Assembly: GCA_010015805.1 (NCBI GenBank)
Contig: ML978124.1
Span: 434,001-498,000 of the forward strand
Length of the DNA: 64,000 bases
From: Rhizodiscina lignyota
Lineage: Eukaryota
Direction of reading: 5' to 3'
Shown: positions 14,346 to 54,097 of the stretch, piece by piece
Layout: each line of letters starts with the position of its first letter
Numbering within the stretch: position 1 is the first letter of the stretch
Made by a program: the position numbers and the translations under genes
The notes under the pieces: model-generated
Told to the model about the DNA's origin: nothing
The model's database searches: none
The model's input: only the letters and a program-made list of their open reading frames with translations

Positions 14346-16650
14346 TCAAAACATGCCACTTCCATCCGTGCCCACACCCACGCCCATTCCGTCCATCTGA
14401 CCAAGGCCACCAAGACCTGCGCCCGCAACGTTTACTCCGTTTACATCTCCGAGTCCGACGTTCAGGCCTGCGAGGTTCGGCATGTTGAGTTTGAGGTCGG
14501 GGTTGCAAGGGGGTGAGTGCTGGCGATGGTACTTGAGACCGTTCAAGTTCTTGTAGCGCTTGCCGCAGACTTCACATCTGTACGGCTTCTCCTTCTCCAT
14601 GCCCACGGTGCCAGGGTAGGGGATCGAGGTGAGGGGATCGACGATGGAGTAGGTGCCGTCGGGGTTCGAGCGGAGCTGTTGGTTTTGATGTCCGTGCTAG
14701 AGAAGACGTCACTTCCAATGTCCCAAAGGGATTATATCTAGGCAGGGGAAAAGGGATCTAAGCAGAACGAGTGTACTAACCTGTTTGTGATACTTCAGTC
14801 CATTCTGGTTCTTGTACGCCTTCTCACACCCAATGACCGGACATCTGAACGGTTTGTTCTCGGCATCGATTCCCGTGCCCGTAACGCCAGCGCCCAATCT
14901 ACCAGCCAGCTGCTGTTGCACCGCACGCGCCAGATCGGTATCGTTACCCAGCTGACCAGTGCGCAGCGCATACTGCAACTGCTGCTGCGTCAGACCACCG
15001 CCTTGCTTGCTGTACAGGCGCTTGGCGGGCTCGTCGATTGTAAGGCCGGACATGTCGTTTTGCAGACCCCCGCCAAAGTTGGCCGTGTTGCCCGCAAAGC
15101 CACCGTTGTTTCCCAGCGCGGCCCAGTCGAAGTTCGGGTTGTTCATCTGCATCTGCATCATCATGTCTGGCCCCATGGGAAGGCCGTGGAAATCCAAGTT
15201 GCCCATGTCGAACTCGGCGTGGGGCGTGCCGGGTATGCTGGAATCAGGAGACTTCTGAGATTGTGTCGCGGTTGCAGAGATGGGAGTGTTGAAGGCTGGG
15301 GTATTCACGGAAGAGACGGTTGGATTGTTGGGGAAGTTGAAGTTGGTGCCTGCAGGTGTGGTTGGTGTGGAAGACCGAAGGCCTTGGTGAGATTGCATGG
15401 TATTGGCGAGGTTCATGTTTAGAGGTGGTACTTGTGGAGTCGTCTGCTGGCCAAAGTTTTGCTGTTGCTGCTGCTGGAAGCCAAAGTTGGACTGCATTGG
15501 GGTTGGAGGTGCAGCGGTGTCATCCATTTCCATATCATCGAGGGTATCAACATCTTGCACAGGCGGGACAGGAGCAGGCTGTTGCTGTGGTTGAGTTTGC
15601 TGATTCGGTCTCTGCTGCTGTCCCGTCACGAGGGTTTGCGCGCTCTGAGCTCCTGCTCCGGGTGCCATAGCGCCAGTTGGTCTTCCACTTGGAATCTGCT
15701 GACTCGATGGCATCTGCAGACTTGATTGCATTTGCATCGGTCTCTGAAGTATCTGGTTCGACGGCTGTGCATGGTTCTCTTCGTAGTGCTGTAGAAGTTC
15801 GTGTAGCGAGTCCAGTGTGATGCCGCAGCAGGTGTAGTCTCGAAGGAAGTTCGCCTCCATCTTCGGCAAGTAGGAAGACGAGTGGAAAGACGGCGATTGG
15901 TGGAAGGCATAGGGTGACGTCCCAGTCATGAGTATGCTATACAACGTTAGTTAACGTCTGCTATCAAGCGCGAGGCGTTTGCTTCATGCAGAGTAATGCT
16001 TACTCGTCTCGAACCCAACTCCCAACAGACACGCCTCCCCAGCTCATGCCATTCGCAAAGCTCCCCGCAGCGCTCTCGCGCCGGGGCCGCTCCACGCGAC
16101 CTGGAATCTGTCGCGCTCCTGATCCATAGTAGGACGATGGAAGGCCGTTGGAGATGGAATCTTGGCGGCCCGTCACACTGAGCCTGCCGTCATTGCCGTT
16201 GCGCGCGCCAATGTTTATGGCGGACGACTGGTTTCCCGTCGCACCGGCCTCTTGCAGCGCGAAAGTGAGATTCGATGTCTGGTTGCGCGGGGACTGGGAG
16301 TTGAATCGCGGCGGTGTGGCGATGTCGAGGGGCGCCGCGGCAGTGTCCATGTCATCGGCCGCGCGCAGCGGGGGAGAGTCTGGGAAGAGGGGGAAGCTGG
16401 TGTCCCCGGAGTCCTCGAAGAGAATGTCGGAGTCGAGGAAGGCGCTGTTCGCCTCGATCTCGACGGGCTTCTTGTGCCACGAGAAGTAGAGGTCCTTGCC
16501 TTTTCGCGGCCGCCCAGCGGCTCCAAAGTGCGAGGCGACTGGGCAGACGGGAGTGGTGACGGGAGTGCTGTCCGCGGTCGATTCTCTGCCACGATCGCTG
16601 GTTGAAGGCGAGTGGACAAGAGGCGGCGGTGTGTCTTTCAGGTCCCGCAT
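14346..16650 (-). CDS. SFP1: Split C2H2 zinc-finger transcription factor Sfp1
   Basis: RRESAAGS...[32 protein letters not shown]...[36 protein letters not shown] and [23 protein letters not shown] are Sfp1 signatures. Two introns. Confidence 0.95.
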
Positions 16651-18274
16651 GCGATCGTAGGAGGTCGTCGATCTGGCGCAGCTCCGGAGTTATAGCCGCG
16701 GAAGTGGGTGGAGTGGCGTCGGGGCGTCAATTGCAGAGGCTCGAGGGCAGAGGGGATGCGACTCGAGGGGATTCGCAGGTGGGCAGCGATGCAGGTGGTG
16801 GTGTTTGATGGAGGTTAGAAGTGAAGCCGGCTGGGAGCGTGTAATGTTGTCGTCGAGCAGCGTGCATGGCATGGCGTGTGCCGGGTGGGTACAGGGACTG
16901 GGGCTCTAGTGGGCGGTGACGGCAGCACACACGAACGAAATCGTCCCAAGAGCAGGCGCTCCGATCACATCACACTCAGAACAGCGCGCGCATCAGCATG
17001 GAAGCAGGCGAGCGAGAGCGAGAGTGCAGAGACCCTGAGCGCCACCAAATCATTCCGGATGCTGTTGCCAGATTCCGCATCGAAACTAGGGCGCCACGCG
17101 ACGCTGCTCGCTCGCGCTGAGGGCACTGTTCAAGAGCCAGCCATGTCTCCGAGACACTGCGCACCTCGAGTAATCGCGCGCAGTGCCGCCTCAGTGCCTG
17201 TGCCGCACGTTGCTTTTGGGAGAGACGCACTGGGCCGCTGCTCATCTCGCAGCGAGATGGCTTCCATGCTGTCTGCCTATAAGACTATATAGAGGCACAC
17301 CGGCAGCGCTCTCTCGCCTCGCTTGCACTGCGCTCGCCGTCACATCTGCGCGCCTTGACTCCGACGGGCCGGCGAGATCCACGCGAAGGCTTCTAGAAAA
17401 CGCATAGCTGAAACGCCTTATCGATTGCTTCCACGTGGGAGCCGTTTCCAAACAGCTGCTCGCCTCCAGCGCGCTCTCGAAGCTGCGCGTTCGACTCCGT
17501 TTTAATTCATGCTGAATAGCAATCGGGGCAATGCTCCACAATACAAGCACTCGCTCGCAGCGCTCAGCGACGAGTCAACTTCCCAGCTTGGCAGAGTAGC
17601 GAGGAATGGCGAGGCGATCGCCGGCTAAGGAGAGCAACCCTGGAAATAGCTCGGAAAAGGAAAGCAAGCCGGGCTCACGGGCCGAGACTCATTTCGAGCG
17701 TAGAGCGGATGTCGCCTGGCGCCAGTGCGGAACGCTTTTACGTTAAAGCTCCGCGAGATTAGTTGTTAAATGACACGCCGTTTATGCCACTGAATTCCAT
17801 AAGCATGACAGGCCGCCTCCAGCGCATCCTGGAGATCGAACTGCCCTACAGCCGCATACTGCACCTAACGAAGCCCTCCTCCGACTGCCGTGACGGGCCG
17901 ACTGGAATGCTTGCCAATTGCGTTCCTTTTGTCGAGTGGGCTAATAGAACAGCCCGATACACACAATTGATGCGACTGACGGCATAATGAAGTCACAGGA
18001 TAACCAGGAATGGGTGACGCTTGATAGGTGAGATTGGCTACCCGAGAAGCCGAGGTATGGCGAGAACGCGATGCTCTACAGCTGTACAGGGGTAAGCTCG
18101 AACACAGCGTCCACGCAATAAAATGGAGCCTGGACCGCTTGCCACTGGAGTGATATTTTGGGACAAGGTCCAGACAATTGAGAAAGAAAGAGAAAGAACG
18201 GGAAAAGAGGGGGTCGTGAGAGCTTGTTGAGAGGCTCTATTTTGCTTGACTATTTTCAATATTTCTCCACTATA

Positions 18275-34669: not shown

Positions 34670-36073
34670 TCAGCCCGCAATATACTTCCGGATTTTCTCA
34701 TACTGCTGAATCTCTTCAGTGGTCGGCCTTCTTTCAGGACCTTGATAGCGGATCGGGTCCTGTCCAGCACATCGCCTCAAGTGAAAACGATGTGTTTGCT
34801 TTTCCGCATCGAGTACCTGGTACGAAAGCACGTCATACAGACCGTCGTATCTTAGGCCTCTTTCCGGACGGTAAAAGCTCTTCACAGAAGACAAGTTGTG
34901 ACTCCGGATAACTCGGACCGGATGCTTCGTGATCGTACCGTTCTCGTCAACTCCGGTAGCTGACTCGATCATCCGTTTGGTATTTTCTGTCATTTGAAAA
35001 TCTGCACCATCTGTGCCTGAGTACCAAATCTCATCTCCATCGTCCCGATCTTGATAGCCAGTGCCGCCGCTTAGTACAATGGAGTATGCACCTTTCCCGG
35101 AAGAACCAAAGATACCTCCTTGCGCAGCTCCATGTGCACCATCACGAACGGTGCACAATTGTGTTGGCCACCATTGGCCGTTTAAGAGGTTTCCTCCGCC
35201 GTAATACTGCGGATGCTCTCTGTTTGGGTAATCTTTTTTGATCCTGTCTGCGTTTCTTTTCTCGAAGTTGTGCTTACTAACCTTTCTACCAAGCTCAATT
35301 CCATCGAGAGGATCAGTATTGAATTTTGCTGCCGCCCACTTGTTGTACAGTTCACGCGCGTCTGCACGAATATCCCATGGGAAAGGCGTTTCTGACAAAT
35401 TCGCATCGAAAATTTGGGGCAGACCGGTAGTCTCGCTCAGCATGCGCACCTTCTTTAAGGACACGGGCCAAGATTTGTGGCCTTTATCGCCCATGTCCAA
35501 GCTGAAGAACATGATCGCGTGCAGCTCGTCTCGTAATTGGTTGAAAGTGTCCGGTGTCGCTTTCTGCGGGTCTTGACATGTCTCAATCAGACGCGGGATT
35601 CTGCTCAGACGGGTCGTGAGTGCCCGAAGCTCAAGCTTCTGTGTGAGCCTGTGCTTCAGATCGAGTTCGCGATACCATTGTGGCAACGTCCGGTTTGCCT
35701 CAGTGCTCTGAGGGGGACTTCTCGGGCCATCGATCGTCGCTTCTCTTGAAGCGCCATCTTCCAGGGGTACAGGTTCAGATGTCTTCGGCTTTTTTGTTAT
35801 TTTCAAACTCGATAGGTCCATGGGCCTTGGATTCTCTCTCGGCGTCGCAACAGATGCTGGTGTTCTCTCCTGTGGACTCTGCTCACGGCCCCGCTTAGCT
35901 CTGTTGGGTTGTGGCTCGGTAGCACCATGGTTCTCCCTCTCCTTCATCTGCTCCTGCCTCGCAATGGTCCTTTGCCTCTCTTCATATTCTTCCATCAACT
36001 TCTTCCGCCCAGCTTCATAGCGAGCTTCGAACTCCTCCCATTGTTTTTGCTTGATGGGATCGTCTTCATACAT
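34670..36073 (-). CDS. SRA/YDG-domain protein (5' end may extend via an upstream exon)
   Basis: GQWWPTQLCTVRDGAHGAAQGGIFG, GAYSIVLSGG..YQDRDDGDEIWYSGT, PVRVIRS, GLRYDGLYDV, FHLRRCAGQDPI. Confidence 0.9.
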   Translation of the reverse strand: MYEDDPIKQKQWEEFEARYEAGRKKLMEEYEERQRTIARQEQMKERENHGATEPQPNRAKRGREQSPQERTPASVATPRENPRPMDLSSLKITKKPKTSEPVPLEDGASREATIDGPRSPPQSTEANRTLPQWYRELDLKHRLTQKLELRALTTRLSRIPRLIETCQDPQKATPDTFNQLRDELHAIMFFSLDMGDKGHKSWPVSLKKVRMLSETTGLPQIFDANLSETPFPWDIRADARELYNKWAAAKFNTDPLDGIELGRKVSKHNFEKRNADRIKKDYPNREHPQYYGGGNLLNGQWWPTQLCTVRDGAHGAAQGGIFGSSGKGAYSIVLSGGTGYQDRDDGDEIWYSGTDGADFQMTENTKRMIESATGVDENGTITKHPVRVIRSHNLSSVKSFYRPERGLRYDGLYDVLSYQVLDAEKQTHRFHLRRCAGQDPIRYQGPERRPTTEEIQQYEKIRKYIAG

Positions 36074-37009
36074 AATGTGTATAGCTTTGGTGCTTCTGAG
36101 TTTATAAGTTAGTGGAGGTTTATGTAAAAGTAAATCGAATTCAGAGTCTTCCTTGAGATAAGTCCGACAACATCAATCCTTGAGGAACTTCGGTCCCGGA
36201 ATGTGCAAGCAGTCTCGGAGAATGAGAGGGGATTTAAGTTCATACCTTGACTTGAAGTGCCTTTCTAATCGGCGTGTTCCAGAGGTGTTTTGGCGTCAAG
36301 TTGCAATGCCGGGATAGGTCGAAGAACTTCAGAGTCGCGTGGTACACACGTACGTCGGTTGCTATCCACAACAAAGCTGCAACCTGATGCAACGCTTGGT
36401 GGGTGTTGTGACGTAATCGTGCCTATCCACTCGTCAAAATTTGGGCCAAGAGAAAAATAAGAGAGAAGAAAAGGAGGGTGTTGTTAATGTTATAAACTTA
36501 TGAATCGGACATCTGTTGCTCGTGCTATTGCTCTTCATACTCTGAATCGCGTGAAGAAAAGGTGTAAAAGAGTTGATATGTGATAAAACACATTACAAAA
36601 TGTCTTCTATAGAGTGCACGGAGGCAGGTTTAAAGCAGTAATGTATTGGGAAGTTTCATACTTGAGATTTAGGAAATTCACTTACCAACTTGAGTGCCGG
36701 TACCGAGAGCTATGTGCCAATTTCCTGACGAAGAAAAGCAGGCTGGCATTGGCCAGCCAAGCCGACCAAGATGTTGATGAGTTGAACTTTGGAATCAAAA
36801 AAAGTCCTTGTTGATGTGAGAAAGTTCGTGTGAGTTGATCAAGAGATCCAGACTTCTTAACACGCAATACTAGCGCTTCCTAATCGGGTTAGGGTAGGAT
36901 AGGATAAGCGGCTTTAGGCAGCCACGGCAGCGTCCCTTATTGCAGGTGGTTGCGAACGCGTTTTCGGTATAATATACTGCTGATGTGAAAGAAAGAGAAG
37001 GGGATTCCG

Positions 37010-39291: not shown

Positions 39292-40197
39292 CTACAGTCC
39301 CCAGACGGCGAACAACACTGTGGCCACCATGATCCAATACCCAGACATCTCCGCAACAGTCTTGATGGCGCCGCTTGTAGTGCTGGATGACGCTGTTCCC
39401 TTGGGTAGCGTCCCATTGATCACAATCTTATTGCTGCCATTCGCGTCCGCCACATTGACCAATGACTTGTTCAGCGCCGCATAGCTCCCATTGCCAATTA
39501 TCGAATTCAAGTAGGTGCTGTTCGTATTGTCATCGCATCCACAATCCTGATTCTTCGCGCACAGACACTCCACATCCTTTGTCTGATTTACACCGTTGGG
39601 GAACGTCGAGTTTCTCGCGGACTCGTTGTGGAAAGTATAGGGATGGCTATACGGGTAGGAAAAGGCGCCGGCAGCCCAGATGCCAGGGAAGATGAGGAAG
39701 GGCGTCGCAAGGAAGATGGGATTAATTCCGCGCGGTGATCGGCCACCTGCAGCATAGGCAGTCGTCGCACCTCCGCCATAATAGCGTCCGCCAGCGAATG
39801 AAGGGCGAATGCCGGTTGTGCCGCCTACCGCAGCTCCGCCAGAGGAACCGGTACCGCGACCTGGAGTATGTCAGTGAGTAACTGAAGAGTTAGCGCTCAA
39901 GGAGGACGTACTCCCTGATGAAGAGGAGCCTCCTGAAGAGGAGCCTCCAGATGACGAGGAACCTCCAGATGATGATGAGCCTCCAGATGATGAAGAGCCT
40001 CCACTGCTTGTTCCGCCGCCACCCTTACCCCCTCCACCTTTGCGCTTGAACAGATCATTCAGGGATTCGACGGGCGCGTCGACAATTGAAGGCGCATAGT
40101 CACGGATAGCTATATCATTGACTTCGGCAGGGATGGAAAAGGTAGAGGATAGCGATGCGCTCGCGAGCGCGATTATTAATGTGTGGAAAATCTTCAT
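39292..40197 (-). CDS. Secreted Gly/Ser-rich, probably GPI-anchored or C-terminally anchored protein
   Basis: Signal peptide, KR Kex2-like site, (GGSSSS)n tract, GGRYYGGGATTAYAAGGRSP, CLC...CGCDD, INGTLP, hydrophobic C-terminus. Intron 39861-39911. Confidence 0.85.
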
Positions 40198-41867
40198 GGG
40201 TAGGTTGTCTCAGGGTGTTGTGGAGAGTTGGAGGTACAACGCGGTCAGAACCGAGAGTTATTGTATCGCAACGGCCGCGGCAATTGGAGTTCGATGGAAA
40301 TTTATCCGCAGGGCGAACATAGGGCGAATGTAAATGTCATGGACACGAAAGAGATGCCTGAGGAAGCGATGACATGGCGACGCCCCTCGATTAGGATACA
40401 GAAGGTGCTGAAGTTCTGGGGCAGCTTGGCACCATGGCGCAGTTTGATCATGAAATCAGCAAGCATGCTTCATTTCTTTGCCAGCCAATCAGCGTGCTCC
40501 TCGGTTCAACCCGAACGACGCCGGCAAGGCTGTCCGGGCGTATTTCGCATTCGCTAGTGGAGGAGGATCGTAAATGTAACCGGGTACATTCTGAACAGCC
40601 ACGATTCGTCTAGCAAAACTTTGGAAAAGCCCAACGAGCGGTTACTTAATGATGTTTCAGCAGCCGCAGTTGCCGGCCTGTGTCTTCTCACCAGGGATTT
40701 GTCCTGTGGCAGTATCGTACCGCCACCTTCCGCACTAGCGATCGTACTCGGCTATTCGATGGACATTGACGACCTTTCATGTGTTCGATGTGATGCGAGT
40801 TAATGATAAATTAGAAACTTACGATTTCGTCTGAACAATAGAGCTGATAAGTTTGCTGTGGTTGAGTTGAGCAAGCGCTATCTGGATGAAGTACTAACCT
40901 AACAGAGGCAGTGAGTTTAGACCGCTCCCCTTACCGGTGTAGCTATCGGCCGCTTGCCAGTCAGATTTTGGAGCCTCTTAGAGATCAAGCACAAACACGG
41001 AAGCTGTTTGCTTGAAGGCTTAGGCACGGGAGTAATACAGCTGACTCTCCGGTCATGGGGAGGCCTTGGAGACAAGGTCATTGAAATCGTGATGAGACCG
41101 CAAAGTAACTTAGCTACCCAGAGACCATCATTCAGAGTTGAATGGCTGATAGTAGCACTCCACACAATGAATGGCCAGGAACAATTCTGATTTGTGAATT
41201 ATGCTCCAAAGCGGCATTTTGGAAGGATGATTCATTCGACTTCGAACACGTGGAAATGAGAGAAGACTCCTGTTATTTTCTCAGAAGCTGTCATCTAAAA
41301 TTGAAAGATGAAGAGTTATGAATGAAAGGCCACGGTCGCTAAAGTCAAATTGGCATGCACATTGCGATGATATAGGTAGTCAATGGGACACAAAAAGTGG
41401 GTTTCCCAACCGGAGATGAATATTATATCGGGCCGATGCGCTCATTCATAGAACGCGACATCGGTAAGGTCCTCTCTCCTTCCAGCCGCGAGATATTTCT
41501 CCAAATGGGCAGCTGAAATGAAGAGAGAAGAAACAGGTTCTGGTTCCGAAACGCAATCGGCACGAAGATGCGCCAGCTATGATCAGTGTGGCTGCATCCT
41601 TTGGAGTTGTAGTAGTTGGGGATCGAGGTCGCCCGCACCGATTTCCACATTCCGTTACGCTCGCGCAGAATTCCTTCGTCGTCACCTTCGTCTGGCGACC
41701 GCCGCGCAATTCAACGACATCCCATTGGTTTCTGGAGAAGTAGCTGAAAGGAAGACTATTGCTATGGCAAGTATATTAATTAACCCAAGCTCTCTTGAAG
41801 TCCTCGTTTCGTATTCAACCACCTTTCTCTCAATCTATTCGTCTCCTGTTAATTGCTTCTTCCCATC

Positions 41868-44800
41868 ATGACAGAACCAATACCGGGCCCAAGGGGCTAT
41901 CCCATCATTGGAAATTTGCTGGATGTCCAGGCTGAAGTCCCTCTCCACGCCCTGGAGCGTCTTGCAGATATTTACGGGCCTCTCTTCAAATTCAAGGTCG
42001 GCAGCCATGAACGCGTCGCCACCGGCAGTTTCGAGATTTTCGATGAGCTTTGCGACGAAACGCGATTTTGGAAGGTACCTCCAAGGGCCTTGCAATCATC
42101 AGATGGACAACGGAGGGCCGTTGGCCTTTTCGCGTCTCCATCTGAGAAGAACGAAGATTGGGGACAAGCGCACCGAATACTAATGCCTGCTTTCGGGCCA
42201 ATCGCAATCGAATCGATGTTTAATGGTAAGCTCCACTCTCAAACTACAGCATAGTGCATTCGATCACACTAACATTCAATAGAGATGCACGACATTGCCA
42301 GTCAGCTAATTCTCAAGTGGGCGAGAAAAGGATCCGATTACAAAATCCCGGTTTCTGGTGACATGTCTCGACTCACACTTGACACTATCGCTCTCTGTGC
42401 CATGGATTTCCGCTTCAATTCATTTTACCAAGATGAACTGCATCCGTTTGTTCAAGCAATGAACAATGTTCTAGCGAACAGAAGCAATGCTGTTCAGTTA
42501 TCGGGTATCATTTCGAGGTTGCTACCCTCCCACACAGAACAATTGAAGAAAGATTCTCTTTATCAGAAGAAGGTATCTCAAGATTTGGTGCAGTACCGGC
42601 GCGATCATCCGACGGATAAAAAGGACCTCCTCAATGCAATGATATATGGGAAGGATCCGAGGAGTGGCCAAACAATGAGAGACGAGTTGATCGCGGCTAA
42701 TATGCAAACGTTCTTGGTTGCCGGTATGCAAGAGGAGCTGTGAGCATTGATTTAGAAGCTAATTAGCTTTACAGGACATGAAACGACATCGGGCCTTCTA
42801 TCGTTCGCGTTTCTATTAATGCTCAAGAATCCTTCGACCTATTTCGCTGCCCAACAGGAAGTCGACCGAGTCATCGGTAAAGGCAAAGTAGAGGTTAAAC
42901 ATCTCAACCAGCTCAAATACATCAATGCTCTTCTTCGCGAAACTTTACGCTTAACTCCCACGGCGCCGGCGATTACGAGAAGTGTGAGGCCTGAGAACAA
43001 GGAAGAAATCCCAACGGTGGGCGGCGGGAAATGGGCAGTGCCGAGAGATGGTGCTGTCATATGCCTTCTTGGCAAGATCCAGCGAGACCCAAAAGTGTGG
43101 GGCGATGATGCGGAAGAGTTCAAACCAGAGCGCATGATAGATGAGAAGTTTGAGAAGATCCCGAAGAATGCTTGGAAGCCATTCGGAACAGGACTTAGAG
43201 CCTGTATAGGTCGTGCCTTTGCCTGGCAAGAGGCAGTCCTTGCTGTGGCCTTGATTCTCCAGAATTTCGACCTCTCACTCGACGATCCCAAATATGAGTT
43301 CAAAGTCGTCCAAACGCTAACAATCAAGCCAAAAGACTTCTTCATGAGAGCAAAACTCAGGCCTGGAATCGTTGCTACTCAACTTCAAGAGTCTCTCATG
43401 GCCTCGGCACCAACTGATCTTAGCCCTCACGAACATGCGAGCAAGCCTGGAACTCAAGACCCGCACGCTGGCAAGATAAGGATACTGTATGGCTCAAACA
43501 CCGGGACTTGCCAGTCACTCGCTCAGAAGTTAGCTTCGCAAGCCAAATCGGCCGGCTCTGAGGCATCTGTGGAGGATATGGACTCGATGATAGGCAGTCT
43601 ACCAAAGGACCAGCCTGTTGTAATAATCACAGCATCATATGAAGGCCAACCTCCCGACAATGCCGCCCGGTTCGTCGCTTGGTTAGAATCGCTTGAGGAC
43701 AAGAAGGCTTTTGAGGGAACCAAATTTGCCGTTTTCGGATGCGGCCACAGCGACTGGCGGACCACATTCTTACGGATACCGCAGCTTGTCGACAGCAAGT
43801 TGGCTGAACTCGGTGCTTCACGTATCACTGCCATGGGAAGCACAGATGTATCGAAAAACAACATCTTTGATGATTTTGAAACGTGGGCGGAGAAGGAGTT
43901 ATGGCCCGTAATGCCAGCTGTTTCTGGATCACAGCCAGTATCGATGACAGAGTCGGTGAAGCTACCAGACTTGATTGTCGAAACAACTGCCCAACGCCGT
44001 GCCGCGCACCTCAAGCAAGATTTGCAGTACGGTACGGTCGTCGATGTCAAGCGGCTCACAGCATCCACTCAACGCGAGAAACGGCATATTGAGATTGAGC
44101 TGCCTGAGGGCATGACATATCAAGTCGGAGACTACCTCGCGGTGCTTCCACTGAACCCAGATGATAGCGTAAAGAGGGTGATGAAGAGGCTTGGTCTTCC
44201 AGCAGATGGAGTCCTGACTATTCGCGACGCGGGACCAACGATACTTCCAACGGAGGCACCAATTATGTTGTTCGGGGTACTTAAAGGCTACGTTGAATTA
44301 TCACAGCCTGCAACACCGAGAGTATGCTCATATCAGACCAACCCTCCGATAGAATAATATTGCTAACTCAACTGAAATAGGATGTTGCTCAACTTGTGGA
44401 CCTGGCAGTGGATCCGGATGAAAGGGGGAAGCTGAAGGACCTGACTGATCCGGACATCTACACCACGTCGATACTCAATCATCGTACTAGCGTCATTGAT
44501 CTCCTCGAACGCTGTCCTAGCATTCAAATCTCTCTTGCTCAGCTCCTCACGATGCTGCCTCCACTCAGACCACGACACTACTCCATCTCCTCATCATCGC
44601 TCAACAAAGCATCCTCATGTACACTCACATATTCTGTCATCGACGAGCCTGCTATGTCCAACAGCGATGAGCATTTCGAAGGCATCACAAGCACTTATCT
44701 TCGCGACCTCAAGCCTGGCGACCGCATACTCGTCTCTGTTCGGTCCACAAACAAGCAGTTCCGTCTTCCAACTGACCCGGAGAAGACACCAATCATGATG

Positions 44801-45262
44801 GTTGCGGCGGGCTCGGGCATCGCGCCTTTCCGTGGGTTTATCGAGGAGCGCGCAGTTTTGATCAAGGAAGGGAACCGCAAACTTGCTAAAGCCCTGCTCT
44901 TCTTCGGCTGCCGCTCTCCCACGGCAGACTGTATGTACAGAGACGAATTCGACGAATGGGTCAAGATTGGTGCCGTCGATGTTCGATACTGTTTCAGCCA
45001 GGACCCAGCGCGCAGTGAAGGCTGCAAGTACGTCCAGGATCGGATGTTGAAGGACAGACAGGATATTTATGATCTGTGGGACGGAGATGCGAAGTTTTTC
45101 GTCTGTGGCACGAAGAATGTTGCCCACGAAGTTGCTCGGGTGGCAAGGGAATTGGTGAAGGGGAAAGCCGAGGCGGAAGGCAACAAGGTGAGTGACGAAG
45201 AGGTCGACGAGTGGATCAAGGAGAAGAGGGGTGAGAGATTTGTTAGTGATGTATTCTCATGA
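41868..45262 (+). CDS. CYP505: Self-sufficient cytochrome P450/NADPH-P450 reductase fusion, CYP505 family
   Basis: PIPGPRGYPIIGN, AGHETT (across an intron), LRETLRL, FKPERM, heme motif FGTGLRACIG, FMN loop YGSNTGTC, RHYSISSS, AGSGIAPFRGF, C-terminal FVSDVFS. Three introns. Confidence 0.96.
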
Positions 45263-45535: not shown

Positions 45536-46141
45536 CTATGCTTTAACTGCTACGAATCCCTCCTCCACCGCCTCGCGTGTATGCGGTAAAACATAGTCTG
45601 CTTGCGTGCACTGCGCCTGCAACCCCCATGACACCAGCGACGGCACCTGTATTCCAAATGTCAGGTGCCATACCTCCACCGCCTTCATCGACTCTTCGCA
45701 CAGGCGACCTCTTCCTCGCCAGAGGTTGCCCAACCACGTCCGCGGGACCCTGTACACGTGCTTCGTGTTTACCCAGCTTGCACACCAGAGCTCCGAAATG
45801 TCTTCCATTTCGAGCATTAGGCCGGTGTCTGGATGGGGGAGGGCTGGGGGAAGGGGGAGGAAATGCGTCCTTGATGATCCGTAGTGTGTCTGGCTGCCGA
45901 ATTGCGGCAACTGAAAGTCGGTGTTGTGGAAGGATGTCACAGTGAAAATATCGACTTGGTCGATTTCGGGGAAGTAGTCTAGTACGATGACTGGATGCGA
46001 GAAGCATCCATCAGGGACATAGACGGGGTATGGAGTAGGGGCTAGGTGCTTTAGCTTTGGCAGCCAGAGAATTTCGCCACGGCGGCAGAGTCCTGGTTTG
46101 ACTGCTGGATGCTTTTGGAGGTTTCCTTTGAATTGTGCCAT
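45536..46141 (-). CDS. Uncharacterised protein with a putative PemK/MazF-like domain (paralog A)
   Basis: Intronless 201-aa ORF: RGEILWLP...GCFSHPVIVLD...VDIFTVTSF...FLPLPPA...SWVN...YRV...LCEESM. Shares this motif series with the 51012-52385 ORF. The fold assignment is inference. Confidence 0.65.
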   Translation of the reverse strand: MAQFKGNLQKHPAVKPGLCRRGEILWLPKLKHLAPTPYPVYVPDGCFSHPVIVLDYFPEIDQVDIFTVTSFHNTDFQLPQFGSQTHYGSSRTHFLPLPPALPHPDTGLMLEMEDISELWCASWVNTKHVYRVPRTWLGNLWRGRGRLCEESMKAVEVWHLTFGIQVPSLVSWGLQAQCTQADYVLPHTREAVEEGFVAVKA

Positions 46142-46913
46142 TGTTCAAAGTTCCTGTTGGTTCGATGTGTTTCCGTGGTGTGATATGTGATGTGCTTATT
46201 CGTTGTGTGTGCTTTCTTGCTACGAAACGTGCGTATATCTGACCGAAGCGTAGAAACGATTGTGATGAACGATCGGATGTGCGAGATGGAATGTAACTGA
46301 AGAGAAAGAAGGAAGGAAGGGAAGCATAGCTTTATTCTGTTGCCCTGCTGAAGATAGAAATTCACCGTTGGAAATTGTGCAGTGTAGAAAATAGGAAATG
46401 CTTCATTGGAAGCTCTATGATTGGATTGTAGAAAGCCGTTGAAGGCGCTGTTGACCAAATTGCGGCCATGATGATTTGACGTGGTCCCCATCAAATTATC
46501 TGACTCGCGTACCAGTGTTATTTACATGACGAATCTCTCGATGGAGAATTATCATTTTCTCTGCGGGGATTGGGGCCCGTTATGTGGAGGAGAAAAGGTG
46601 ATCTATGATACTCAACGTTGGAAGAGCATTAGTGCGGCGCGTCTGCAGAGTGCCTTAAGCGCATACATAAGCCATTGTATATACCTGCTACGCATATACG
46701 GCATTGCGTTAAGATGTGAAAGATTTCGAATATCTTGATATTAGAATGTTGAAGTAGTACTGAAGATCGTGAAGAGAGGCGAAAAGAAAAGGAGAAGTCG
46801 CCAGGTGGGGCCAATCTCTTTTAGGAAACAAATGATCCGCTTTAAACGGCCCGGTCCATCTTGCGGGGGTGGGGCAGGGGCCAGGGTGGGTGGCCAGAGT
46901 GGGTGGCTTGATC

Positions 46914-47266
46914 CAGGGTGTCCAATAATCCTCTGGGATTATGGATTATCATAATCTTAATAATCAAGATTATCATAATCGGATTATAATCAGATTATAA
47001 TCCTAGTACCTAAGCCTAGGGGGATAGCACCTAAACCTAGGGGGGCTTAGGTCCCGAAAGCTAGGTGCTCTAGGGGTATACACAGATCATTATTTTTAAA
47101 ATTTAGAGTACAGTAATTAAAAGTTACAGCTACCTAGCTTTAGGTACCTAACCCTTCTAGGGCTAGGTACATCCAGATTATGAGAGGATTATATAATCTC
47201 ATAATCAGGATTATCATAATCTAACCTAATCCATAATCGTTCATAATCTGATTATTGGACACCCTG
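46914..47266. mobile_element. Non-autonomous hAT-type DNA transposon (MITE-like), 353 bp
   Basis: Perfect 17-bp TIRs CAGGGTGTCCAATAATC (46914-46930) / GATTATTGGACACCCTG (47250-47266). 8-bp TSD GCTTGATC (46906-46913 and 47267-47274). Dense subterminal GATTAT/ATAATC repeats; no coding capacity. Confidence 0.93.
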
Positions 47267-47484
47267 GCTTGATCCAACAAGTCGAAGCAATTCTCACTCT
47301 TCAACAAAATCGAGAGCATCTCTGAAAACCTTATATAATATGCTCGAGGCATTAGTTATCAAAAATGCACAGCTTCAACATACGCGAGTTGTATTAGCTG
47401 TGACTCAACCTCATTAGTACTCTCTACCCCTGCTAAAGAAACATGAAATGCCACCATCCCTCCTTTACATCTGTTGCGCATGCG

Positions 47485-47880
47485 CTAGAACGAGAAGGTA
47501 AACACCAAAAGCAGTCCCACAACCAGAATCACGAACACTGCAGAAATCACGGCCACGTACATCGGGAGGTTAGATCCGGTTGGCGACTCCAAGTCCAAGC
47601 TCTCTTCATCGTAAATCCGTTCGTGTCGCCTTCCATATTCGTATCTTTCCAATTGAAGCAATGGCAGCTGTTCGTGGGGGAAGTGGAGGAGTGCGATACT
47701 CGAGGTGCGACTGTTGCTGGCGACTCTGGATGGGCCACTTATTACGAGCGGGTTCGTTAACGGTTCGTAGTCTCCGACGAGAGTGGAGCCACTGTAGCTA
47801 CTAACGGCTGTGGACTCGTAGCTACCAACGACAAGTGCGCCGGCGACAGCATGGTCGGAAGTTGTGGTTCCGTAAGACAT
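47485..47880 (-). CDS. Hypothetical small tail-anchored membrane protein
   Basis: 131-aa ATG ORF, Ser-rich N-terminal part, terminal TM helix MYVAVISAVFVILVVGLLLVFTFSF. Confidence 0.55.
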   Translation of the reverse strand: MSYGTTTSDHAVAGALVVGSYESTAVSSYSGSTLVGDYEPLTNPLVISGPSRVASNSRTSSIALLHFPHEQLPLLQLERYEYGRRHERIYDEESLDLESPTGSNLPMYVAVISAVFVILVVGLLLVFTFSF

Positions 47881-48391
47881 GATTCGATTGTAGTAGGAGT
47901 CGTATTGCTGATGTAGATGGAGTATCGGAGTAATTCTCGAACGTAGTTTCGCTCTTGTATCCTGCTGTGTTCGACTCTGGAATCTTGAACTGTTTGAGGA
48001 TATGTGAGATGAAGAGAATGAAAAGAATGTGAGAAGGAAAGTCTGATAAATACATAAGGATGATCTGAATATTGGAATATTCTATTGGATGTACGAATTT
48101 GATGATGATTCCGATCTCATACTTTCAACGGCGGTGATATGCATTACATAATCTAATAGTTTTCCACCAAGCTTGGAAAATCCAACGTCGCTGATAATAT
48201 CGCTAGGGATGCATGACGTTTCGATAACAATTTAAGTGCAAGCGTCCGCGGCGAAGCTCGGATGTGAAATGATGGGAAAGGCTGTCATTCGAACATCGAT
48301 CCCCTGGTGACTTCCTATCAAAATGATGACACTCCACAGGGAGTGTGTCTTCTCTCTCATATAACCATCTTTCGTAAATATTCCTTCTTGA

Positions 48392-49184
48392 TCAAGGCTC
48401 CAATCCCGATCTCAGACGGCCGGGAGAGTCATGATCGTGATATTCGCATTTCCGGACACTGCAGGCACTCCGCTTATTTGACTGGCGGCAAATTTCGCAT
48501 CGCGCATACTCGTGCGGTCCTTCATGTGCACGGCGCCTGATAATCAGGTCTTGAAGGAATTCCTGCCGTCCTTCAATCGTTTTCTCTTCAATAGCCGACT
48601 CTACCCAGTCAGCTAGACTGTACCACCATAAGGCAACCATGTCTACTGCTAACTTCCGCAGGTCAGCCCCTGCGGAAGTATTTTCATAGATGTACTGAAC
48701 GTAGCAGACAAGATCGTCGGACCCTGCAAGCCAGAGATCGATCAATATGTCGATGATAGTATTCTTGAGAGCCGGAATACCGCACTTGTCAGCAAAGACC
48801 CAAACCTCACATAGGAGCTTGCGAAAGTCGGGATGCTGTGCTTTTGTAGCCCCCATGTCTTCGAACAGTTGTCCAGTGTAGAGCCAGAATAGGAAAACCT
48901 CGAAGACCTCATTCTTGGTGTTTTTGAGAACCAATGGTTTGTTTGTATAATTCGCAACGCTGTCGTGAATGATGCCGTCGAAATACGAAGACGCGAAAGA
49001 GATGAGGCGCCCACGGAAGGTGTATCCTCGGTTTCCGACAACGATGTTGACGAATTCACCGCCGAACAAGGTCGGACTACTTTGTCAGTAGCAGAACAAG
49101 CGGATGATTACTCAGGGCTTACTCTTTCTGCTTCAGCATTAATGCCTCCTGTGTGGGACATCCCTTCGAGATTTGATTACCCAT
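48392..49184 (-). CDS. Fungal BTB/POZ-domain protein with a predicted N-myristoylation start (MGNQISK)
   Basis: VNIVVG...LISFASSYFD...FEVFLFWLYTGQL...VWVFADKCGIPALKN...YIYENT...LRKLAVD...CEYHDH. Exon 1 49123-49184 plus intron 49077-49122 (GTAAGC...CTGAC...TAG) is phase-consistent. Confidence 0.85.
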
Positions 49185-49506
49185 CTTCTGTGAGTTTCGG
49201 TGATCTAGAACCAGACGAAACAGTCGAACTTGCGAGATGAGTGAGAGAAATGAAAATATTTATGGTAGTCTAAAGCTTGATGGTGAGGCGGAGTTCGGTG
49301 GATTCAAATCATAGGTGAGGCTTTGAAGAGGAGGCAAGAACGCAAATTAGAAGCAGTTGATTCCAAACGGAACCAATGCATGCGCAACCAATTATTGGTA
49401 TTGACTGCCGTCCAATGCTTTCCACGCCAAACGACCCTCTCCGACCGAAAATGCCGCACAATAAGCCTCAATCCAGTTAATCATCGCTGCCATGCCAAAA
49501 TCGTCA

Positions 49507-50328
49507 TCAAGCGAACTTATCGTGTTTGCCTTTGACTTTGACATCAAGCAAAACCTCGTGAAAGTTCCCATCCCTTCTTGCCCTCTTGAGCATCTTGACA
49601 TCGTTGTCTTCGAGTCTCCGGCCAACCATTTCCTCAAGCTCCTTTCGACTAATCTTCTCCCGTGCTCTCTCTTCCTTGTTAGCCTTCAACTTCGGCTTGA
49701 ACCTGGCTTGCATCCGTATTCTGAAGGTCGTTCTGAACTCGATGAACTCCGCGTCTCCACGCACATCCGCAGCACTGCCCCCGACGGTGCCCTTATCCTC
49801 GTCAATAGCCAAGAACTTGTCTCGCTGTGTTTGTATGCCGAAAGCACCTGGATTGTCGGCCACTGGTATGCACAAGAATGACTCTTCGGGCGAGATTGCT
49901 TCTCGCGTTGCCGACAATACACCAAACTTGTCGCACGTCAGATATTTCCCATGATGGCCCTTGAAGCTGAAGCTCTCAGTGCCGGCTATACGCGTGGCGA
50001 CCCAAACTTGTCTGACATCGTGAGGTTCTGCAGTGAAGTGATGATCGCCCTCAACCTCTTCAACCTGTATTGAGAACACTTTGCCATTGTTATCGCAGGA
50101 AAGGCAGCTCGGGTGGTCGGTAGGCAGCACGATGATTACGGGACCTGAAATATCAGCGACTGCTTCGGCGTTCACCCACGAGTCGTCATCTTCAGCGGGT
50201 TCTTCTGTAGTCTTGACGAGCGCTTTTGGTTCGGGTGCTTCAGCGGCTGCACCTTCTTCGTCGGCGGGTGCGCGCTTCCGCTTTTTGCTTGGTTTCTTGT
50301 CGCCTTTGAACGTTAATGGTTTGACCAT
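49507..50328 (-). CDS. FRG1: FRG1-family protein
   Basis: MVKPLTFKGDKKPSKKRKR, EPHDVRQVWVA, SFKGHHGKYL, ATREAISPEE, RIRMQARFKPK, ARRDGNFHEVLLDVKVKGKHDKFA. Confidence 0.93.
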   Translation of the reverse strand: MVKPLTFKGDKKPSKKRKRAPADEEGAAAEAPEPKALVKTTEEPAEDDDSWVNAEAVADISGPVIIVLPTDHPSCLSCDNNGKVFSIQVEEVEGDHHFTAEPHDVRQVWVATRIAGTESFSFKGHHGKYLTCDKFGVLSATREAISPEESFLCIPVADNPGAFGIQTQRDKFLAIDEDKGTVGGSAADVRGDAEFIEFRTTFRIRMQARFKPKLKANKEERAREKISRKELEEMVGRRLEDNDVKMLKRARRDGNFHEVLLDVKVKGKHDKFA

Positions 50329-51011
50329 GTTGCCTGAAGAGGATTTGGGGGTTTGAAAGTTGGAAGTTAGGGCTTCAAGTGTACGGAGTAGCGCAGTTTC
50401 AATGACGTTCGGAAGAAGCCGAGAGAGCGCGTCACTTCACTCGGAAAGACGCGTCGCGACATTCGAACAGACAAATCTATCACGAGATCATGCAGTTGTA
50501 TATGCCATCCACTTTCGGCGAGCATTCTGCCAGATACAAAGTGAATTTGACGGCATGTGAAAATCGGAGTCAAGCACAGCTTCGACATACATGGACTCAT
50601 CGATTTGAGCGCGTACAGCTTGGACTTCTGACCCTTTCTCCTAAAGCGCCTAAAGGTAGAGCTTCAATTCGATTTGCCTAGGGTTTCCTTGTTCCAGGAA
50701 TGACGTGCACTGGAGTATTCACTTTGTTTCTAAAGACCTCTCTTCTACTAAAGAGTATTAGAGACCGGAGTTGAGAAAACAAGTTAAAATAATATACTCA
50801 TTCTTCTAGTGATGAGGGAGGAGCGACGGTGGAATGTGTAATTGAGCAATCATTGAATTATAGGAACACTTCCTTCTGTCGAATAAAGATATTTACTTGA
50901 ATGTCATTTGCATGACGATGAGCTCTCTCTTGCGCCAGTAGAAACTCGATGCTGAACACTGCTGGTACATGAAAAGCCAGGATTCCGTCCATTTGGACAT
51001 CAAAACACAAA

Positions 51012-52385
51012 TTAGGCGAAGTAAAACTGCAACAACAGCAAAAGTAGCAGCACGACCGCCATAGCCAACATGAAGGCTATCACGAACAATTTTCCCACCA
51101 GTCCGCGGTCCTGGGTATAAGCGCGACGTGCACGCTTAACCTCCCTGTCCGCTTCCCCTCTAACCTCCTCAAGTCGCCTCTTGTTTCCGGCAGCGCGGAG
51201 GTTCGAACCGCGAAGTAATTGCGACTGGTCCCGCTGAGCCCAAGCAATGTCCTCCTCCTGCTGTTTCGACAGACGGTCCATTTGCGCAAGTTCAGACTGA
51301 AACGCCGCCAGCTGCTGCTCGTGCTGTCTGTTCAGGTTCATAACCCGCGTGCGGTGCTCATCCTTTGCTTCGCGAAGTCGATCATGTAGTTCTTCCAATT
51401 GACTTCCCATGCCCTGCAATTGGCGCTCATAGGCAGCTCCAATCTCCTCACTCTTTGCTGCTCCTTGTTTGCGCTCCTCTTGGACCATTTGCATGCACAT
51501 CCCGTGCTGGATATCCATCGGCGGGGTGTCATGGTTGTGAGTGCGGGGTGCAACATTGCTGGGTGATCCGAAAGTATGAACCGCGGCAGAGGAACTTGTA
51601 GATTCCGAAGGACTCGGAGTCACGGGCGGTAGGAATCGATATGGCGTGTTGTTATTGCTGACTTCGAATTCGGGCAACTTTAAGCAGTTTGCGCACAGCG
51701 GGAGCTGCTCCCATATGAGACCGCGAACTTTCTGCCGCTGGTCTTCGTTGAGATACTTCCCCACATATCGTAGAAGGTCGTGTTTGTGCATGTGAAGCAC
51801 CATGTCGACGTAAGACTGCTTCTGAAGCTGCTGAGGTCCCTTCCTGAAAGGATGCCTCAGGTAGCTGAAATGAACGCGATGAGAACTGAAGACCTGCACC
51901 ATGTCGACGTAAGATTGCTTCTGAAGCTGCTGAGGTCTCTTGGAAGGATGCCTCAAATGAATGCGATGAGGATTAAAGACCTTTACCCAGGCATTTTTCT
52001 TCATGTCGAAGTTCGGATTCTCGAAGTAGAGACGTGGTTGTCTCACTTTCTCGGATACTGTGGCTGGATACAGCGGCAGGTACCCATAGGGGTCGGGAGG
52101 TCCCACGCTGTTTAGACCACTTCTGGTGAGGGCTGTTGTACAGAGTATCGTAACGCGTCCAGAAACATAGTCAATATCGAACACGATGAAAGGATGGTCA
52201 AAGACCCCGAACTCAACTTCGCTGAACTGGCGAGATTGAGAATTCCTGATTGCTTGAGCCGAAGCTTCTTTATGAGTCGGAAGCCACACGTAAGAGCCGC
52301 GAGTGATCGATTGTAAGTCGACCCTCTCGTTACTCCAAGACGGCAACCGCATCATCTTGCGTGCGAGGTCCACAGCACTATCCAT
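51012..52385 (-). CDS. Uncharacterised protein: putative PemK/MazF-like domain (paralog B) + coiled coil + C-terminal TM anchor
   Basis: Intronless 457-aa ORF: RGSYVWLP...GVFDHPFIVFD...VTILCTT...YLPLYPA...AWVK; E/Q/R-rich heptads; terminal LFVIAFMLAMAVVLLLLLLQF. Confidence 0.7.
   Translation of the reverse strand: MDSAVDLARKMMRLPSWSNERVDLQSITRGSYVWLPTHKEASAQAIRNSQSRQFSEVEFGVFDHPFIVFDIDYVSGRVTILCTTALTRSGLNSVGPPDPYGYLPLYPATVSEKVRQPRLYFENPNFDMKKNAWVKVFNPHRIHLRHPSKRPQQLQKQSYVDMVQVFSSHRVHFSYLRHPFRKGPQQLQKQSYVDMVLHMHKHDLLRYVGKYLNEDQRQKVRGLIWEQLPLCANCLKLPEFEVSNNNTPYRFLPPVTPSPSESTSSSAAVHTFGSPSNVAPRTHNHDTPPMDIQHGMCMQMVQEERKQGAAKSEEIGAAYERQLQGMGSQLEELHDRLREAKDEHRTRVMNLNRQHEQQLAAFQSELAQMDRLSKQQEEDIAWAQRDQSQLLRGSNLRAAGNKRRLEEVRGEADREVKRARRAYTQDRGLVGKLFVIAFMLAMAVVLLLLLLLQFYFA
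51797..51982 (-). repeat. In-frame internal tandem duplication (99-bp and 87-bp copies)
   Basis: gcaccatgtcgacgtaaga(c/t)tgcttctgaagctgctgaggtc at 51797 and 51896. Protein: KVFNPHRIHLRHPSKRPQQLQKQSYVDMV / QVFSSHRVHFSYLRHPFRKGPQQLQKQSYVDMV. Confidence 0.92.
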
Positions 52386-54097
52386 TGACGGCAGTATTTA
52401 ACGCATAGCGAATGACTGTGTGAAAGGAAAGAAAGGAGTGTGGTGTACAACGGATGGAGGCTGAAGAAGAAGGAAGGGAATTTATAGTTGTGTGCGCGCG
52501 GAGCCATAACAAACATTAATACTCCGGGATCGGAGAGAGATCGAGTCACAGTGTGTGTTGCAACGCGTCGGCGCGCCAACGCGCTAGAAGTGAATTGAAG
52601 TACTCCCTCTCACCTCTTTCTTGAAGCATGAGCCTCATCACTCCCCATACCTTAACAATGCATTACAGCCTACGCAATAACATTGCCCTCTGATGAGAGC
52701 AGTAAGACTGATAGCCGTGCGTTCATCATTCTGCTTGGTGCTCCGAAATTATTCCAGACGTTCACCAGCTGCACTGAAACCCAAGCTCGTTTTCGCACGT
52801 ATATATATCAGTGCCTCCGCATCATTTAAGAGACACAATCCAGGTGATCGCCTTCGCTCTCAGAACTCGTAGATCGATATATACGAACACGTTCGCAATA
52901 GAAGCGGGCCAACTACGCTTCGATACGCCAATTGAGAGGGCCATTATTTTCCTTCAGCACAAATCTGCTCAAAACAGTGCATGAGAAGGCCTTTTTTCCA
53001 GTATATGGACTCAGTTCTGATGCTTCCAGCTCTTCTGACCAATCTTTCAAATTCATAGGCGCGTGAGAACATCTGAAGTTCTCCCTCAGACTGGAAGAAG
53101 AGCCTCATAAGGTATGCTGTATACTTCTCGCAAGCTCAACTCGGTAGCACAACTTCTACGAGGTCTGCATCATCCCCGAAATCGACCCCAAGTGGAAAGA
53201 GATTCGTATGTCGACTTGGCGTTGGCAATGGCCAAGGAGCAATGCCTGGGACGAGTCGTGGAAAATCAGCGTCCTTGATAAGTATCCTATCTTACGCCCA
53301 GCTTTCGGAGACGACCGAAGATAAATGAACAACAGTGCGGCCAGGCACGCGACGCTTGGCATCAGTGCAAGATGACAGTTCTTCTCGACAACAGCAAATC
53401 TGATATGCGCCCGCCACATACGGAGCTGACGGCTCAATTAGGAGGGTGGAAAAGTCTCCGCTGTGCACGGCCACCAGCCTTCCACTCCGGGGCTCCTTCA
53501 TGAACTTCTCGGCGCGGGAGTCGAAATGCAATTGATTGGGCTGCCCGCTTGAACGCCACGGCTTCCATGCTCGCACATCATCTAGATAAGGCGAGTGTAT
53601 CCTTATCATGCCCAGGATGACAGGGAACGGGGCCTGAGTCGCCCTCAAAACGTCTTGGAGGTTACATGGTGCGTCTGACAGCAGGGTCGGAATTCTAGAA
53701 AGACATTGCGCGACTCTAGGGATGCTCTCGAATCATGAGCAGCTTCTGCAGTTGGTAAATGCGGCTCGTAGAGGGCCAGCAAATCAGACGACACATTGCG
53801 TAGTTCAAAACCCCCGGCGGCGACTCCGCACTTCACTCGTTATGGCAGCTCGCCGGACCATCAACTTTTGCCAACCGTCCTCCGCTGCTTGGCTGACAAG
53901 CTTCTGCAGTTGCGTGCGGGATACCGCAGGTCATCGAGACGATCTTCGGTCATTCGGTGCGCGAGGCAAATCGCATCTGCGGCCATGTATATCAGTTCGC
54001 ATGGATCGCGTTTGGTCGCTCGAAGGCGACTGCGACCTCGAGGTATTCGACCTCCAATTCAACGCGAGCAGCATCTGCCGCTTTCAACAGCGCGGCA

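Follow-up and report, generated by a model that had tools for sequence, protein, structure and literature searches.

A 64,000-nucleotide stretch of the genome of the fungus Rhizodiscina lignyota (GenBank assembly GCA_010015805.1, contig ML978124.1, positions 434,001 to 498,000 of the forward strand; hereafter the window, whose first letter is position 1) carries two genes, A and B, each encoding a domain that is predicted to adopt the fold of the bacterial MazF/PemK toxins:

45536..46141, minus strand: gene A (P0001), a single open reading frame (ORF) for 201 residues; a soluble member of the family described below, with all family motifs
51012..52385, minus strand: gene B (P0002), a single ORF for 457 residues; a divergent member in which the MazF-fold domain is followed by a linker that is charged and helical and by a hydrophobic, anchor-like C-terminus

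An initial annotation of this DNA had proposed two ORFs with an ordered series of PemK/MazF-like motifs at this locus; both ORFs lie where it placed them, with 201 and 457 codons, and every motif string that it quoted for the two proteins is present in the translations. A stop codon is found 1-4 codons upstream of each ATG, the stop-to-stop frames being 45536..46144 for A and 51012..52397 for B. To our knowledge, MazF, PemK and CcdB toxins are regarded as prokaryotic, and full-text searching of the literature gave no description of a fungal family with the MazF fold. In the part of a toxin-antitoxin survey that was available, the eukaryotic matches named belong to the ParE and Doc categories, with no MazF among them (PMC2446400).

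The products of A and B are related to each other. Pairwise BLASTP aligned them over 87 residues with 31% identity (E 7e-4), and a hidden Markov model (HMM) built from 50 other members of the family, with A and B left out, recovered A at E 2.7e-38 (127 bits) and B at E 1.2e-18 (63.5 bits) among the 1355 six-frame ORFs of the window; because this non-circular profile lacks both proteins and nevertheless recovers both, their likeness is beyond chance. No third ORF in that set reached E≤10, and a profile that included A and B likewise identified no third copy in the window (next match, E 0.045). The initial annotation had described the two as a paralogous pair; while they do belong to one family, to judge from their sequences they are old or fast-diverged paralogues and not each other's closest relatives. 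A maximum-likelihood tree built from 52 domains groups A with its nearest relative, P0003, as sister sequences (support 99/87; 45% identity over 163 residues) and places B, a very long branch (3.08), beside a different clade with moderate support (91/84); none of 200 bootstrap trees (0%) united A and B in a single clade. Since A and B are not sisters in this tree, a recent tandem duplication was ruled out as their origin.

With regard to wider relatives, a HMMER scan of the A/B alignment against 1.84 billion representative proteins (E≤1e-3) identified 53 proteins of 101-466 residues, i.e., A, B and 51 others, with P0003 (E 5.6e-28) as the strongest match besides A and B. Names could be assigned to 18 of the 20 clusters that were looked up, and every name is that of a "hypothetical" or "uncharacterized" protein from a filamentous ascomycete, the sources being Paraphoma, Ascochyta, Phaeosphaeria, Stagonospora, Diatrype, Chaetomidium, Cladorrhinum, Podospora, a Neurospora sp., Colletotrichum, Madurella, Monosporascus, Zalerion, Xylariaceae, Cladophialophora, Phialocephala and Sphaerosporella, with several per-genus clusters. 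Cladophialophora was checked to belong to the Eurotiomycetes, Phialocephala to the Leotiomycetes and Sphaerosporella to the Pezizomycetes; the family is kept in at least five classes of filamentous ascomycetes. No credible match to Pfam, PHROGs or NCBIfam was found for any of the 53 members; PHROGs and NCBIfam yielded no E-value lower than 0.0058, and any family that was matched was matched by a single member (e.g., phrog_1936, "MazF-like growth inhibitor", by one member at E 0.3). A and B are thus members of an uncatalogued Pezizomycotina protein family. Word-index searches of 5.8 billion clusters with A and with residues 1-240 of B returned only the queries themselves, and when the 53-sequence alignment served as the query, nothing but A and/or B came back; the latter search missed known members, and its outcome therefore reflects a limit of the method. 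In four metagenomic loci (L088, L089, L090 and L092), the homologue is encoded in two separate reading frames; unlike A and B, some members of the family are therefore likely to contain an intron within the domain-coding region.

The fold was explored with AlphaFold2 models built with the 53-sequence family alignment. The model of A had a mean predicted local distance difference test score (pLDDT) of 82.8 and a predicted template-modelling score (pTM) of 0.75, with 117 residues above 90, and the model of residues 1-212 of B had a pLDDT of 77.2 and a pTM of 0.68. Foldseek comparison of the A model with PDB returned MazF-type toxins as all 30 matches listed (best E 2.3e-3; template-modelling (TM) score by target, 0.52-0.69), and the B model returned MazF-type toxins as all 32 matches listed, including MoxT, YdcE and CptN. 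A search with VIA-align, which does not use Foldseek and compared the model with each of 48,161 representative chains, gave a clearer outcome than Foldseek, and ESM Atlas, which is independent of the family alignment, placed PemK_toxin clusters among both the feature and the structure neighbours, though short of the level at which it assigns a family name. Both predicted structures show the SH3-like barrel with a C-terminal helix that defines the CcdB/MazF fold. The barrel that the initial annotation had postulated was hence borne out by models of good confidence, and we consider it very probable, on the basis of these predictions, that the domains of A and B adopt the CcdB/MazF(PemK) fold. 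In A, the predicted domain comprises the following elements:

45644..46108, minus strand: MazF/CcdB-fold domain, residues ~12-166, with strands at 23-27, 49-57, 62-69, 94-97, 122-133 and 145-147 and a C-terminal helix at 149-162
45995..45997, minus strand: codon of His49, invariant, first residue of strand 2 (HPVIVL; assigned with DSSP on the model) and aligned by hhalign to Arg29 of Escherichia coli MazF
45935..45937, minus strand: codon of Thr69, invariant, last residue of strand 3 (TVTS) and aligned by greedy hhalign to Thr52 of E. coli MazF
45827..45871, minus strand: family-specific motif R-x2-[YF]-L-P-[IL]-x-P-x3-H-P-D (Arg91-Asp105), in loops longer than those of MazF

The signature of the family, in the residue numbering of A and with conservation counted over 52 aligned domains, reads G-x-I-x-W-L-P ... 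(G-C)-x-x-H-P-V-V-V-L ... T-S-F ... R-x-x-Y-L-P-I-x-P-x3-H-P-D ... L-x-L ... S-Y-V ... L-x3-S. Two positions are invariant, His49 (52/52) and Thr69 (52/52), and the residue after Thr69 is Ser or Thr in 51 of the 52 domains. Two extra loops, one after strand 3 and one after strand 4, hold the conserved Arg91 and His103-Pro104-Asp105 and account for the approximately 40 residues by which the fungal domain exceeds MazF; the R...HPD motif of A had no counterpart in the hhalign alignment with MazF. Within these loops, Arg91 is kept in 42, Pro96 in 50, Pro99 in 48, His103 in 44 and Asp or Glu at position 105 in 45 of the 52 domains. Most members (47 of 52) have a basic domain (median charge, +5; B, +10). 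A metal site formed by Cys46, His49, His103 and Asp105 was also considered and was ruled out, as position 46 is Ile, Val, Ala or Leu in 18 of 52 members. Gene B shows the following features:

51858..52313, minus strand: MazF/CcdB-fold domain, residues ~25-176, with His64 and Thr84 kept and without equivalents of Arg91 and HPD
51797..51941, minus strand: in-frame 99-nt direct duplication, with copies at 51797-51842 and 51896-51941 that are 96% identical over 46 nt
51015..51107, minus strand: C-terminal hydrophobic segment, residues 427-457, reaching the last residue (Kyte-Doolittle 19-residue window up to 3.28)

The duplication in B repeats the start of the C-terminal helix of the domain (QQLQKQSYVDMV twice), and a second, weak family-HMM stretch lies at residues 155-204; Tandem Repeats Finder missed the duplication, which was detected by a separate repeat search. 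The charged, helix-rich region of B gave Pfam matches at chance level only. The C-terminal segment of B looks, from its sequence, like a tail anchor, and a transmembrane-like segment near the C-terminus is found in 21 of the 53 representatives, B included.

A link to MazF was also sought at the sequence level, with a profile of E. coli MazF and ChpBK (from the K-12 record) and 68, later 102, distinct bacterial relatives, a sample from which three loci of unpublished genomes were excluded. In two hhalign runs, the family profile matched the MazF profile with probabilities of 2.4% and 5.9% (single-comparison P of 0.019 and 0.0065); among the controls, a reversed MazF profile gave P 0.27, and the 40 column-shuffled profiles all fell short of 0.0065 (best, 0.014). 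The sole local match of the first run placed HPVvVlS on RPAlVlS, and the second run matched the SYVN strand and the C-terminal helix. The greedy alignments of both runs are collinear, pairing G22 with G10, His49-Pro50 with Arg29-Pro30 and Thr69-Ser70 with Thr52-Thr53, the pairing of Thr69 with Thr52 recurring in both at low posterior confidence. In the bacterial sample (n=102), these columns hold G in 100, R in 97, P in 96 and T or S in 101 sequences. In the model of A, His49 is the first residue of strand 2 and Thr69 the last of strand 3, which we take to be the positions of Arg29 and Thr52 in MazF itself. The catalytic Arg that marks PemK/MazF at the start of strand 2 is replaced in the aligned column of the family by His in 52 of 52 domains. 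The initial proposal that Thr is kept and His stands in place of Arg therefore describes two residues that are indeed invariant and collinear with the MazF pair; the alignment is nevertheless of low confidence, and on the sequences compared this correspondence is to be read as the best available alignment, not as a proven one. Separately, among the bacterial sequences, an Escherichia sp. record (L005), whose MazF is 96% identical to that of E. coli, carries a natural His for the catalytic Arg29 (GHHPAVVLS), the replacement seen throughout the fungal family, and this variant could represent an inactivated or altered toxin.

The comparison with PemK_toxin, MazF and CcdB by profile and by structure, which the initial annotation had called for, thus came out divided: the predicted structures match MazF-type toxins, but no profile match is significant. 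We consider it likely that the family domain is a remote homologue of bacterial MazF. Alternatively, the likeness could reflect convergence on a common small beta-barrel, or modelling bias, in an unrelated fungal domain that is perhaps a relative of DUF6590; the lack of a significant sequence or profile match to MazF, Foldseek E-values of only about 2e-3 and the ESM Atlas fungal clusters partly annotated with DUF6590 (17-69% of members), which are nearer to the family than the PemK clusters, all point in this direction. We regard this explanation as quite improbable.

As to function, our tentative reading, which we hold with somewhat less than even confidence, is that the domain, in a remote homologue of MazF, acts as a MazF-type endoribonuclease that needs no metal, or at the least as a module that binds single-stranded RNA; RNase activity as such could be expected with about the same reserve. 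Under this reading, the domain would bind single-stranded RNA and cleave it without metal, as MazF does, by attack of the 2'-hydroxyl group. At the start of strand 2, invariant His49 would serve as acid/base in the role of MazF Arg29, and at the end of strand 3 the invariant pair Thr69-Ser70 would take the place of MazF Thr52, with Thr69 holding the phosphate; in A-type members, Arg91, His103 and Asp105 of the long loops would complete the site. MazF requires dimerisation to form its RNA groove. No adjacent antitoxin gene of the MazE/PemI/Kis type was found in the window or across 34 metagenomic homologue loci in 17 independent groups, about 3 of which have 6-kb flanks, and control would therefore have to come from elsewhere, either through expression or through tethering via the C-terminal anchor. 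In B and in other members (together ~40% of representatives), the long linker and putative C-terminal membrane anchor would keep the domain attached to an organelle membrane on its cytosolic side. In the B subclade (n=7), Arg91 is lost in 7 of 7 and His103 in 5 of 7 members while His and Thr are retained; with Arg91 and mostly HPD gone, the activity of B may be altered.

Several observations weigh against this reading. None of the 53 members scored above the gathering threshold (23.1 bits) of the Pfam family PemK_toxin (PF02452), one of the 53 matching it at E 0.034, and no family member was significantly matched by an HMM of the 68 MazF relatives. When PDB sequences were searched with 2- and 53-sequence profiles, no toxin came up, only two chance matches to membrane proteins (E 1.4 and 4.9). 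The hhalign probabilities stay within 2.4-5.9%, and no sequence-level method established homology to MazF; the His-to-Arg and Thr-to-Thr equivalences depend on low-confidence alignment columns together with strand positions. The models of A and B rest on largely the same 53-sequence alignment and, because most of it is shared, are not independent of each other. In addition, the domain of A has a net charge of -2 and is an exception in a basic family. Finally, CcdB shares the MazF fold yet is not an RNase (it binds gyrase), and the fold is therefore no proof of function.

The main rival is a non-catalytic binding module of the same fold, i.e., a MazF/CcdB-fold domain of bacterial-toxin descent, membrane-anchored in many members, that binds RNA or protein without cutting and in which His49 and Thr69 contact a ligand. 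We regard this as a possible explanation, though not the favoured one, as the two invariant polar residues lie at the aligned catalytic positions of MazF, and as Arg91, His103, Asp105 and Ser151, polar residues kept in 42-46 of 51-52 domains, form a pattern more typical of an active site. Moreover, His is a classic acid/base residue of RNases, as in RNase A and RNase T1.

If the endoribonuclease reading is extended to its fullest form, these proteins would be the first eukaryotic MazF-type endoribonucleases: ancient in Pezizomycotina, derived from a bacterial toxin, free of an antitoxin, using His (possibly a His49/His103 pair) for Arg and often tail-anchored so as to cut RNA at an organelle surface. 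We advance this as a speculative proposal that is rather unlikely to hold in every part. Invariance of toxin catalytic positions in a family that spans at least five classes would show domestication of the MazF fold in eukaryotes, and the members identified here, including homologues in relatives of Podospora and Neurospora, provide a concrete gene set for testing, with His49 and Thr69 as the two key residues. If active, these proteins would be RNases of a new kind with sequence specificity, and they might add to fungal biology a further, membrane-localised layer of RNA control or cell death; a tail-anchored RNase would serve localised decay of mRNA or of rRNA/tRNA, or regulated cell death.

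The initial annotation had further suggested that A and B could be RNase effectors of a fungal conflict system, acting in nonself recognition, antiviral cell death or spore killing. The predicted toxin-type fold is consistent with such a role, as are the fast divergence of the family (the word index of 5.8 billion clusters gave no relative, and the nearest homologue of A is 45% identical), the two copies in one window and the several per-genus clusters. By contrast, A and B adjoin genes of housekeeping type: their neighbours encode a multi-exon P450-reductase fusion, FRG1, a concentrative nucleoside transporter, an ABC transporter, GWT1, a class II tRNA synthetase, a phosphoenolpyruvate (PEP) mutase and an SRA-domain protein, and no toxin-, antitoxin-, NLR- or HET-like gene was found among the neighbours in the window. 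Across the 17 metagenomic groups, no neighbour family recurs, and hence no conserved partner emerges; none of these loci is syntenic with the window or has a neighbour matching those of A and B, and the neighbours that could be identified are ordinary (an ABC transporter, GH67, a YVC1 channel and Myb), with no gene of NLR or HET type among them. This context is weak negative evidence, because only about 3 groups have long flanks. None of the 53 representatives exceeds 466 residues, and thus no large NLR-type fusion is seen. A conflict-system role is compatible with an RNase mechanism and as such possible, but it is unsupported by context, and we judge it unlikely. Overall, of the earlier interpretation the half that concerns the fold is upheld by the predicted models, whereas the part that concerns a conflict system lacks support from genomic context. 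Near A and B, the window contains the following features:

34670..36172, minus strand: ORF of 500 codons with a SAD/SRA domain (E 3.4e-25)
39292..39870, minus strand: ORF with DUF7732, a fungal domain of unknown function (full-profile match, E 5e-47)
41452..45262, plus strand: multi-exon fusion of cytochrome P450 with a flavodoxin/FAD/NAD reductase (self-sufficient type, P450-cytochrome P450 reductase), ending ~270 bp from the 3' end of A
47485..48081, minus strand: ORF of 198 codons between A and B, without a Pfam match and with a hydrophobic C-terminus
48392..49084, minus strand: ORF of 230 codons between A and B, without a Pfam match
49507..50436, minus strand: FRG1-like gene

Domains of the SAD/SRA type read methylated DNA in other eukaryotes. 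G+C content peaks at 0.607 in positions 16001-18000, compared with 0.46-0.56 in the rest of the window.

Among known families, DUF6590 (PF20233), a fungal domain of unknown function similar in size to the domain described here, is the nearest named one by language-model features (0.92-0.93) and by Atlas structure (TM 0.56 by query). This likeness is confined to ESM Atlas features and structure, as the DUF6590 HMM matched none of the 53 members at E≤10; full-text searching found no paper that names DUF6590 or PF20233. CcdB (PDB 1vub) and the type III toxins CptN, ToxN and AbiQ (4rmo, 4ato and 4glk) score lower than MazF proper, and the fungal (H/R)P and T(S/T) motifs are MazF-like, in contrast to these toxins. 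No match of the family to the CcdB HMM (PF01845) was found, nor were the gyrase-binding C-terminal residues of CcdB, and Tandem Repeats Finder identified no tandem RNA-antitoxin repeats at 51000-52400, which spans gene B itself. The type II toxins MazF, PemK(Kid) and ChpBK (PF02452; PDB 4mzm, 5cr2 and 1m1f) are bacterial, whereas the fungal family belongs to Pezizomycotina. Compared with MazF, the fungal domain is longer (~150 versus ~110 residues), has two long loops with an R..YLPIxP...HPD motif of its own and often precedes a long linker and a putative membrane anchor; it also differs in having His for the catalytic Arg, no adjacent antitoxin found and no above-threshold Pfam match. Because the Pfam PemK_toxin test failed and both the catalytic Arg and an antitoxin are lacking, we do not file the family as a member of the MazF family and instead place it in the CcdB/MazF fold superfamily as a new variant from eukaryotes.

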